Positions 7,979-8,158 of a stretch of 24,000 nt of DNA are shown in pieces (the first letter of the stretch is position 1; the number at the start of each line of letters is the position of its first letter). The translations under genes were made by a program, and so were the position numbers. The DNA is from Pseudomonadota bacterium. Lineage in GTDB: Bacteria; Pseudomonadota; Gammaproteobacteria; Pseudomonadales; Porticoccaceae. The stretch spans positions 1-24,000 of the forward strand of contig JAYELS010000017.1 in the NCBI GenBank assembly GCA_034717695.1, given 5' to 3'. A model generated the notes under the pieces. It did not search any database. It saw only the letters and a list, made by a program, of their open reading frames with translations, and was not told where the DNA came from.

Positions 7979-8093
7979 GGTCGACGTGTGGCGGCCCCTC
8001 GATCGTGGGGTGCCCGGGATGACGGAGAAAGCGCAACAGGCAAGAACAGCCGCAAGGGCTGTGGATGACGTGTGGCGGCTCCTCGATCATGGG
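7979..8093 (-). repeat. two 31-nt direct repeats (27/31 identical) spaced exactly 84 bp apart, each with a GATC-centred imperfect palindrome
   Basis: Read on the minus strand, R1 (8093->8063) is CCCATGATCGAGGAGCCGCCACACGTCATCC and R2 (8009->7979) is CCCACGATCGAGGGGCCGCCACACGTCGACC. R2 contains CCCCACGATCGAGGGG. The GATC sites lie at 8085-8088 and 8001-8004. Confidence 0.9.
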
Positions 8094-8158
8094 ATGCGGG
8101 CATCCGGTAGACAGGTAGCTTTGCGTCACCGCCTTTCGACGGTTTTGCCATTTTCAGC
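8063..8158 (-). promoter_or_regulatory. candidate c-di-GMP-I (GEMM-I) riboswitch aptamer in the pilus operon leader
   Basis: The minus strand 8158->8118 reads UGAAAAUGGCAAAACCGUCGAAAGGCGGUGACGCAAAGC. It has the GGCAAA element, a 5-bp helix CCGUC/GGCGG capped by a GAAA tetraloop, and the GACGCAAAGC junction. This closely parallels the Vc2 aptamer core as I recall it. The second hairpin and the 3' boundary are uncertain. Confidence 0.55.

Follow-up and report, generated by a model that had tools for sequence, protein, structure and literature searches.

A probable class-I c-di-GMP riboswitch aptamer, with a repeat of its 3′ half downstream, in the leader of an SCPU-type pilus operon

In class-I c-di-GMP riboswitches, the ligand's two guanines are separated by an intercalating adenine, A47, and the 3′3′-cGAMP class is marked by an A at position 20. 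The 2007 paper on the GEMM motif (Weinberg et al., PMC1950547) counts papC and papD among the gene families that follow the motif more than once (its Table 2), and places the terminators, where present, over the 3′ side of P2. Tandem c-di-GMP-I riboswitches have been described as doublets and triplets consisting of complete aptamers only (Sherlock et al. 2022, PMC9481103). A literature search found no paper that connects Csu or "spore coat protein U" pili with a c-di-GMP riboswitch, and, taken with the listing of papC and papD, this makes the association described here new in detail, not in kind. An earlier note on this DNA, made from the sequence alone, had treated riboswitch control of such a chaperone-usher pilus as undescribed; given the papC and papD cases of 2007 that was overstated, although a report specific to the Csu/SCPU type was not found.

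The window (the whole 24-kb stretch of DNA that was analysed) very probably carries, on the minus strand from 8161 to 8069, the aptamer of a class-I c-di-GMP riboswitch (GEMM-I, type 1) with a canonical pocket, in the leader of an SCPU pilus operon. The minus strand from 8164 to 8064 reads CCCCGUGCUGAAAAUGGCAAAACCGUCGAAAGGCGGUGACGCAAAGCUACCUGUCUACCGGAUGCCCGCAUCCCAUGAUCGAGGAGCCGCCACACGUCAUC. Rfam cmscan of the whole window returned a match to the c-di-GMP-I clan (CL00126) at 8158-8070 on the minus strand with a score of 62.3 bits, and the E-values, 9.7e-13 over the 24-kb window and 3.7e-14 over a 900-nt region, place the match far above chance. The sole match above its gathering score in the window was to RF03167 (c-di-GMP-I-GGC, gathering score 59), and a second family of the clan reached at least its own threshold but was masked by clan competition. 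The RF01051 score of the window itself is masked in this way, and those of its sisters are given instead: the near-identical aptamers of the clade score 64.0-70.4 bits on RF01051, against a gathering threshold of 35 bits, and RF01051 is the best model for L081 (66.7 bits), L165 (64.0 bits) and L172 (70.4 bits). Our own covariance model, R1, gave the window aptamer 120 bits. Between 7700 and 8600, even at E ≤ 10, there was no match to c-di-GMP-II (RF01786) and no relevant Rfam family besides the c-di-GMP-I clan, and R1 and Rfam each detected one aptamer in the window and no second.

These searches, together with the Pfam assignments of the operon genes, bear out the central proposal of the earlier note, namely that the leader of a Csu/SCPU-type operon holds a class-I c-di-GMP aptamer; the Rfam check that it suggested gave a clan match above the gathering score, with the RF01786 control silent. 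The core string quoted there is present on the minus strand and ends at 8118, but it starts at 8156 rather than 8158, a trivial 2-nt offset, and its elements, GGCAAA (8149-8144), the helix ACCGUC/GGCGGU, GAAA (8137-8134) and GACGCAAAGC (8127-8118), were all found as listed. The coordinates of the features are collected in Table 1.

Table 1. Features of the leader and the pilus operon (window coordinates unless a locus is named), with mean pairwise identities among four lineages for segments of the leader.
Feature	Position	Strand	Basis or remark	Mean pairwise identity
c-di-GMP-I class aptamer	8069..8161	−	Rfam match, R1 model score, covariation in 12 homologues	
P1	8161-8155 with 8074-8069	−	drawable as CGUG(C)UG / CACACG	
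P1a hairpin	8148-8123	−	GAAA tetraloop 8137-8134	
P2	8119-8078	−	aligns end to end with RF01051/RF03167 P2	
Aptamer 5′ half				0.90
Proximal copy (P) of 31-nt direct repeat	8067..8097	−	repeat search; inside Rfam match	0.95
Spacer between copies				0.49
Distal copy (D) of aptamer 3′ half	7983..8013	−	90% identical to P, 84 nt downstream	0.84
Leader after D				0.41
L010 repeat copies	3396-3432 / 3487-3523			
L081 repeat copies	2757-2798 / 2848-2889			
Small hairpin ACAGCC-CUUGC-GGCUGU	8046..8062	−	tip of alternative hairpin; structure conserved	
Alternative ("anti-aptamer") extended hairpin	8019..8090	−	8090-8066 pairs with pyrimidine-rich 8042-8019	
Stable hairpin CUCUACAGC...GCUGUAGAG	8175..8225	−	−27.6 kcal/mol, z −2.1	
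Shine-Dalgarno GAGAGG 7910-7905 and pilin ATG 7897-7895	7895..7910	−	sequence; homologous pilins begin MKT	
Major pilin, 177 aa, SCPU/Csu type	7364..7897	−	Pfam PF05229, E 1e-32	
PapD-like periplasmic chaperone, 247 aa	6621..7364	−	Pfam PapD_N, E 8e-17	
Outer-membrane usher, 940 aa	3836..6658	−	Pfam Usher, PapC_C	
Second SCPU-domain subunit, 142 aa	3411..3839	−	Pfam PF05229, E 4e-30	

The aptamer lies on the same strand as the pilin gene, 172-264 nt upstream of its ATG, within a 498-nt divergent intergenic region, and the pilin start at 7897 had been placed correctly. The Pfam domains of the operon (SCPU twice, PapD_N, Usher and PapC_C) are those of a Csu/SCPU-type (archaic) operon; the four-gene order is identical in BRH_c0 and occurs in L175 and L176. 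The nearest database relative of the major pilin is a protein of a Porticoccaceae MAG, with 98% identity. In the usher, the best Pfam Usher stretch, one of two, begins at residue 623, and no other domain was detected by Pfam in the N-terminal part; homologous ushers are 949-973 aa long. An EAL-domain gene (2373-3224, minus strand) follows the last pilus gene after a gap of 187 nt and is absent after the homologous BRH_c0 operon; by eye, its N-terminal EAL motif region (AVAVGARVV) and its DDFG motif (DHFGAGYSS) look degenerate. The divergent gene on the other side of the leader (8396-9961, plus strand) encodes a bacteriophytochrome-like PAS_2-GAF-GGDEF protein, which may be catalytically degenerate, since its GGDEF signature, read by eye, is DGGAF (RWDGGAFAVV).

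We fetched 160 loci with homologous pilin genes from genomes and metagenomes without regard to RNA, and a further 16 came from individual homologue look-ups. R1, which was built from five aptamers of the clade, was searched against 174 loci; L175 and L176 were left out of this search and used for gene context only. The aptamer-bearing loci fall into the groups the window with L084; L010 with L095; L081 with L082 and L083; L165, L166 and L172/L173; and L018, L039, L024, L155, L129, L137 and L113. Their sources are relatives of Porticoccaceae-like bacteria, Moraxellaceae and Noviherbaspirillum as well as soil metagenomes, and they provide 12 distinct homologous leaders in which the aptamer stands 40-310 nt upstream of SCPU pilin genes. 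Every homologous aptamer tested exceeded the Rfam gathering score, with 53-77 bits. About 10 of the 160 loci fetched blind to RNA carry the aptamer, indicating that its association with the pilin recurs but is not the rule. The proteobacterial-type SCPU operon with a c-di-GMP-I aptamer in L018 (contig CAZQJF010000102.1) is labelled "uncultured Streptomycetaceae", a label that is probably a binning error.

The helices of the aptamer are supported by covariation among the homologues. When the 12 distinct sequences were aligned (alignment A6), 98.1% of the cells were standard pairs and 17 of the 28 pairs had changed on both sides, figures that are somewhat inflated because the alignment was guided by the model and so fitted to the structure. 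Pairing fell to 33-47% in a control in which the 3′ partners were slid by 1-3 columns, and none of 500 shuffles reached the observed values. Compensatory changes are visible by eye in every helix. The covariation check proposed in the earlier note thus came out in favour of both hairpins, within the limits of a model-fitted alignment.

The second of these hairpins had been described as atypical, a description that the end-to-end alignment with the P2 of RF01051, as shown for L081, and of RF03167 does not sustain. Its lower stem pairs 8119-8110 with 8088-8078, its distal stem-loop is GGAUG-CCCG-CAUCC, and at the place of the tetraloop receptor there is an internal loop, UACC/CAU, where the consensus has CUAAG/UAUG; the receptor accordingly deviates from the 11-nt motif (CUAC...CAUG as against the canonical CCUAAG...UAUGG). 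As read from the sequence, P2 is a standard second hairpin with a receptor-like loop and closes locally. The modelled architecture is that of type 1, with a GC clamp, a GNRA tetraloop and a P2 bearing a non-canonical receptor, into which the tetraloop may dock. Closure of P2 with a distal segment (7967-7945), offered earlier as the other way to fold this hairpin, is not needed and was rejected, since local closure matches the Rfam models and conservation is lacking in the distal segment. Within that segment, AGCAC (7958-7954) is complementary to the 5′ strand of P1 in the window only. In the BRH_c0 aptamer (L010, 3350-3356), AAAA replaces the GAAA tetraloop and a receptor-like CUAA...CAUG loop is kept.

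The pocket residues are canonical in the alignment to the Rfam consensus, with G at 8149 (the G20 equivalent), A at 8122 (A47) and C at 8075 (C92); this mapping to Vc2 numbering follows the Vc2 structures. G 8149 is unpaired, lies 5′ of the GC clamp and directly 5′ of GCAAA, and C 8075 stands just before the 3′ strand of P1. The G20-equivalent column holds G, and the A47-equivalent column A, in 12 of 12 aligned aptamers, and the C92 equivalent is clearly C in 10 of the 12, the alignment being ambiguous there for L039 and L024. The G directly 5′ of GCAAA, which had been noticed before, is confirmed and argues for c-di-GMP rather than 3′3′-cGAMP as the ligand.

Three other identities have been weighed against that of a functional class-I c-di-GMP aptamer. 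The aptamer could belong to the c-di-GMP-I-GGC variant (RF03167), with an altered pocket and perhaps another ligand, given that the window (62.3 bits against 59), L010, L095, L084 and L166 all score highest on RF03167. Yet the RF03167 consensus, by which the GGC variant is defined here, is GACGCGAAG, with a G at the A47 position, whereas in the window the sequence is GACGCAAAG, A occupies 8122 and the defining G is lacking; this region is GCAAAG or GCAAAA in the window and in the 12 aligned homologues, all of which have the A, and the same-clade sisters L081, L165 and L172 score best on RF01051. The near tie between the two models in this clade therefore reflects overall sequence similarity and not the pocket, and with A at 8122 the window should not be filed as a GGC variant, which we consider very improbable. 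A 3′3′-cGAMP (GEMM-Ib) riboswitch has an identical overall fold, and its members are also picked up by c-di-GMP-I models, but this identity is contradicted by the G at 8149 and at the equivalent position in all 12 homologues, and exoelectrogenesis-type genes were absent nearby in the Pfam scan; it is the hardest of the three to credit. That the aptamer is a decaying relic with no remaining regulation might be suggested by the failure to find a clear expression platform and by a leader that has been duplicated and deleted in places. Across lineages, however, the aptamer is 90% identical in its 5′ half and 95% in its 3′ half, as against 41-49% in the flanking leader and only 60-70% in the pilins, its pocket residues are all intact, and its helices have been maintained by compensatory changes, all of which makes a relic barely plausible. 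We infer that the class-I aptamer binds c-di-GMP and regulates the pilus operon in cis.

How binding would be turned into an output depends on the sequence between the aptamer and the pilin gene. The earlier note had pointed to the small hairpin at 8062-8046 and the moderately U-rich tract after it as a possible expression platform. The structure of this hairpin is conserved, its stem differing in sequence in L010, L081 and L172 yet still pairing, but no convincing ligand-controlled terminator came of it. In favour of ligand-controlled intrinsic termination here are the conservation of the structure with differing sequence, the moderately U-rich tails in L010 and the window, and the terminator-like call given to the equivalent hairpin and AAUUUGUUGU in L081. 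Against it, the L081 call is at the level of shuffles (1 found, 0.8 expected), the terminator scan called no terminator-like site in the leader of the window, at 8062-8046 or elsewhere, the U tract is absent in L172, the stem has only 5-6 bp, the U-rich run UUUCUC is paired within the extended hairpin in the window, and the element is wholly missing in L165 and L166, which keep the aptamer. Moreover, because the small hairpin lies entirely downstream of P1 and does not overlap the aptamer, the ligand cannot block its formation. An intrinsic terminator at this site was thus rejected, being uncalled in the window, free of overlap with the aptamer and devoid of a U tail in L172, and we regard ligand-controlled termination there as unlikely.

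A second predicted structure would compete with the aptamer. The alternative hairpin, which has the small hairpin at its tip and is mutually exclusive with P2 and P1, has a predicted energy of −27.2 kcal/mol in the window (z −3.65, matched by none of 200 shuffles); the same arrangement has weaker scores elsewhere (z −1.75 in L081 and −0.55 in L010) and is significant in the window only. Unconstrained minimum-free-energy folds of whole leaders were uninformative. Once c-di-GMP is bound, the 3′ half (8090-8069) would be held in P2 and P1 and would no longer pair with the pyrimidine-rich 8042-8019 strand, and the output would then be set by which strands stay free. With no ligand-dependent intrinsic terminator found in the leader, we expect the output to act on the initiation of translation or on termination by Rho; probably, then, control is translational or post-initiation, and possibly it is Rho-dependent. 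The 60 nt just after the aptamer hold 26 C and 13 G, a bias in sequence that is suggestive, and only suggestive, of a rut site for Rho.

When the aptamer was enforced in silico, the unpaired fraction of the Shine-Dalgarno core in the window dropped from 0.34 to 0.01, owing to pairing of the freed UUGCCU (8043-8038) with AGGCAA (7907-7902), whereas Shine-Dalgarno accessibility was altered little in L010, L081, L166 and L172. The candidate duplexes between anti-Shine-Dalgarno and Shine-Dalgarno strands were no better than composition-matched shuffles (z −1.2 to +1.3). At such shuffle-level energies, neither a relay through UUGCCU and AGGCAA in the window nor one through the conserved UUGCCUCG of L081, L165 and L166 against their own Shine-Dalgarno sequences is supported; a single co-change, CCUCG/CGAGG in L081 versus CCUCA/UGAGG in L165, is suggestive. 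It is quite possible, though short of probable, that the ligand turns expression off in the window, the direction in which thermodynamic modelling leans; an ON response, favoured by the biology and by the clearer platforms of other lineages, is just as possible, and some other control, or none at the level of the Shine-Dalgarno sequence, is a lesser possibility. In L113 (87-231), L155 (81-233) and L137 (2225-2384), the 3′ strand of P1, GUCCCC, is complementary to a Shine-Dalgarno sequence, GGGGAC, 40-60 nt downstream. Unlike the window, these three leaders appear to have the design of a classical translational ON platform, with which modelling weakly agrees.

At the start of the leader, the promoter scan found no sigma70-like promoter in the window, while in L166 and L081 such promoters lie upstream of the aptamer, their ends about 50-65 nt from it. 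The stable hairpin upstream of the aptamer probably represents a 5′-terminal stem-loop of the leader. Hairpins of unrelated sequence occupy the same place in L010 (z −6.5), L172 (z −2.9) and L166 (z −1.6), standing, as in the window, 15-35 nt upstream of the aptamer. The one in L166 begins directly after the sigma70-like promoter, which suggests that it may serve as a protective 5′-end stem-loop.

The leader also contains a direct repeat of part of the aptamer, a feature missed in the earlier note, as was the top rank of the GGC variant model. Within the proximal copy, P, are the 3′ arm of distal P2, the 3′ side of the receptor, the 3′ strand of P2, C92 and the 3′ strand of P1. The distal copy, D, is found in L010, L081 and L172 as well (spacings of 91, 91 and 85 nt) and is absent in L165 and L166, where the sequence 3′ of the single copy aligns with the sequence 3′ of D elsewhere; from this pattern the extra unit, made up of a 3′ half, a hairpin and a complementary strand, seems to stem from an ancient tandem duplication. 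The possibility that 8062-7983 holds a degenerate second full aptamer was rejected, since there is no GGCAAA or ACGCAAAG core in that segment and R1 and Rfam find one aptamer. In all four leaders that have it, D retains the full set of lower-P2 pairs with the 5′ half and equals P in its number of P1 pairs: 14-15 of 15 pairs are standard, the exception being an A-G in L081 that occurs with both copies, and all seven substitutions at paired positions preserve pairing. On the receptor side, CAU has become CAC in D in three of the four lineages.

The simplest reading of these patterns is that D has been kept by selection for pairing with the 5′ half of the aptamer; gene conversion from the proximal copy, or pairing to the strand downstream, might instead explain its conservation. 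If such selection is at work, D (8013-7983), which would form the same P2 and P1 helices with a changed receptor, could compete for the 5′ half in the absence of c-di-GMP. The leader would then have one 5′ half and two selectively maintained 3′ halves, of which P is competent to bind ligand and D serves either as a decoy or mimic or as a further decision point, a scheme that we put forward as doubtful but worth stating. We know of no riboswitch with alternative 3′ halves in any class, and such a leader, if real, would be an expression-platform design new for riboswitches.

The aptamer of the window is an unremarkable representative of a well-known family of RNAs, in a gene context that was anticipated in 2007, and it leaves the general understanding of c-di-GMP riboswitches unchanged. 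With it, the Csu/SCPU pili of Proteobacteria from sea and soil join the adhesion structures that are apparently under direct, RNA-mediated control by c-di-GMP, and it supplies 12 natural aptamer variants for the SCPU gene class. With RF01051, as known from the type 1 Vc2 aptamer of V. cholerae, it shares the two hairpins, the core GGCAAA...GAAA...GACGCAAAG, the AAA linker, G20, A47 and C92, the receptor-like internal loop of P2, the closing helix P1 and, probably, the position in a 5′ leader, and its sisters score 62-77 bits; it differs in its CUAC...CAUG receptor, in its distance of 170-260 nt from the start codon, in that neither a terminator nor the Shine-Dalgarno sequence overlaps the aptamer, and in the downstream second copy of the 3′ half in part of the clade. 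RF03167 is the best-scoring model for the window, and its helix lengths and P1 geometry agree, but the A at 8122 stands in place of the defining G; a top match to RF03167 is therefore insufficient to call a GGC variant, and the pocket residue must be read. Like the papC and papD cases of the GEMM survey (PMC1950547), this is a class-I c-di-GMP aptamer upstream of chaperone-usher pilus genes; that survey names gene families only, whereas the operon of the window is of the SCPU/Csu "archaic" type, with an SCPU pilin first. The conserved half-aptamer repeat offers a lead on new platforms that evolve by partial duplication. As in the tandem riboswitches (PMC9481103), aptamer sequence is repeated within one leader, possibly sharpening or re-timing the response; unlike in those tandems, it is the 3′ half of about 31 nt, together with a degenerate copy of the hairpin and strand that follow it, that is repeated, and, having no second 5′ half, the repeat of the window is not a tandem of complete aptamers.
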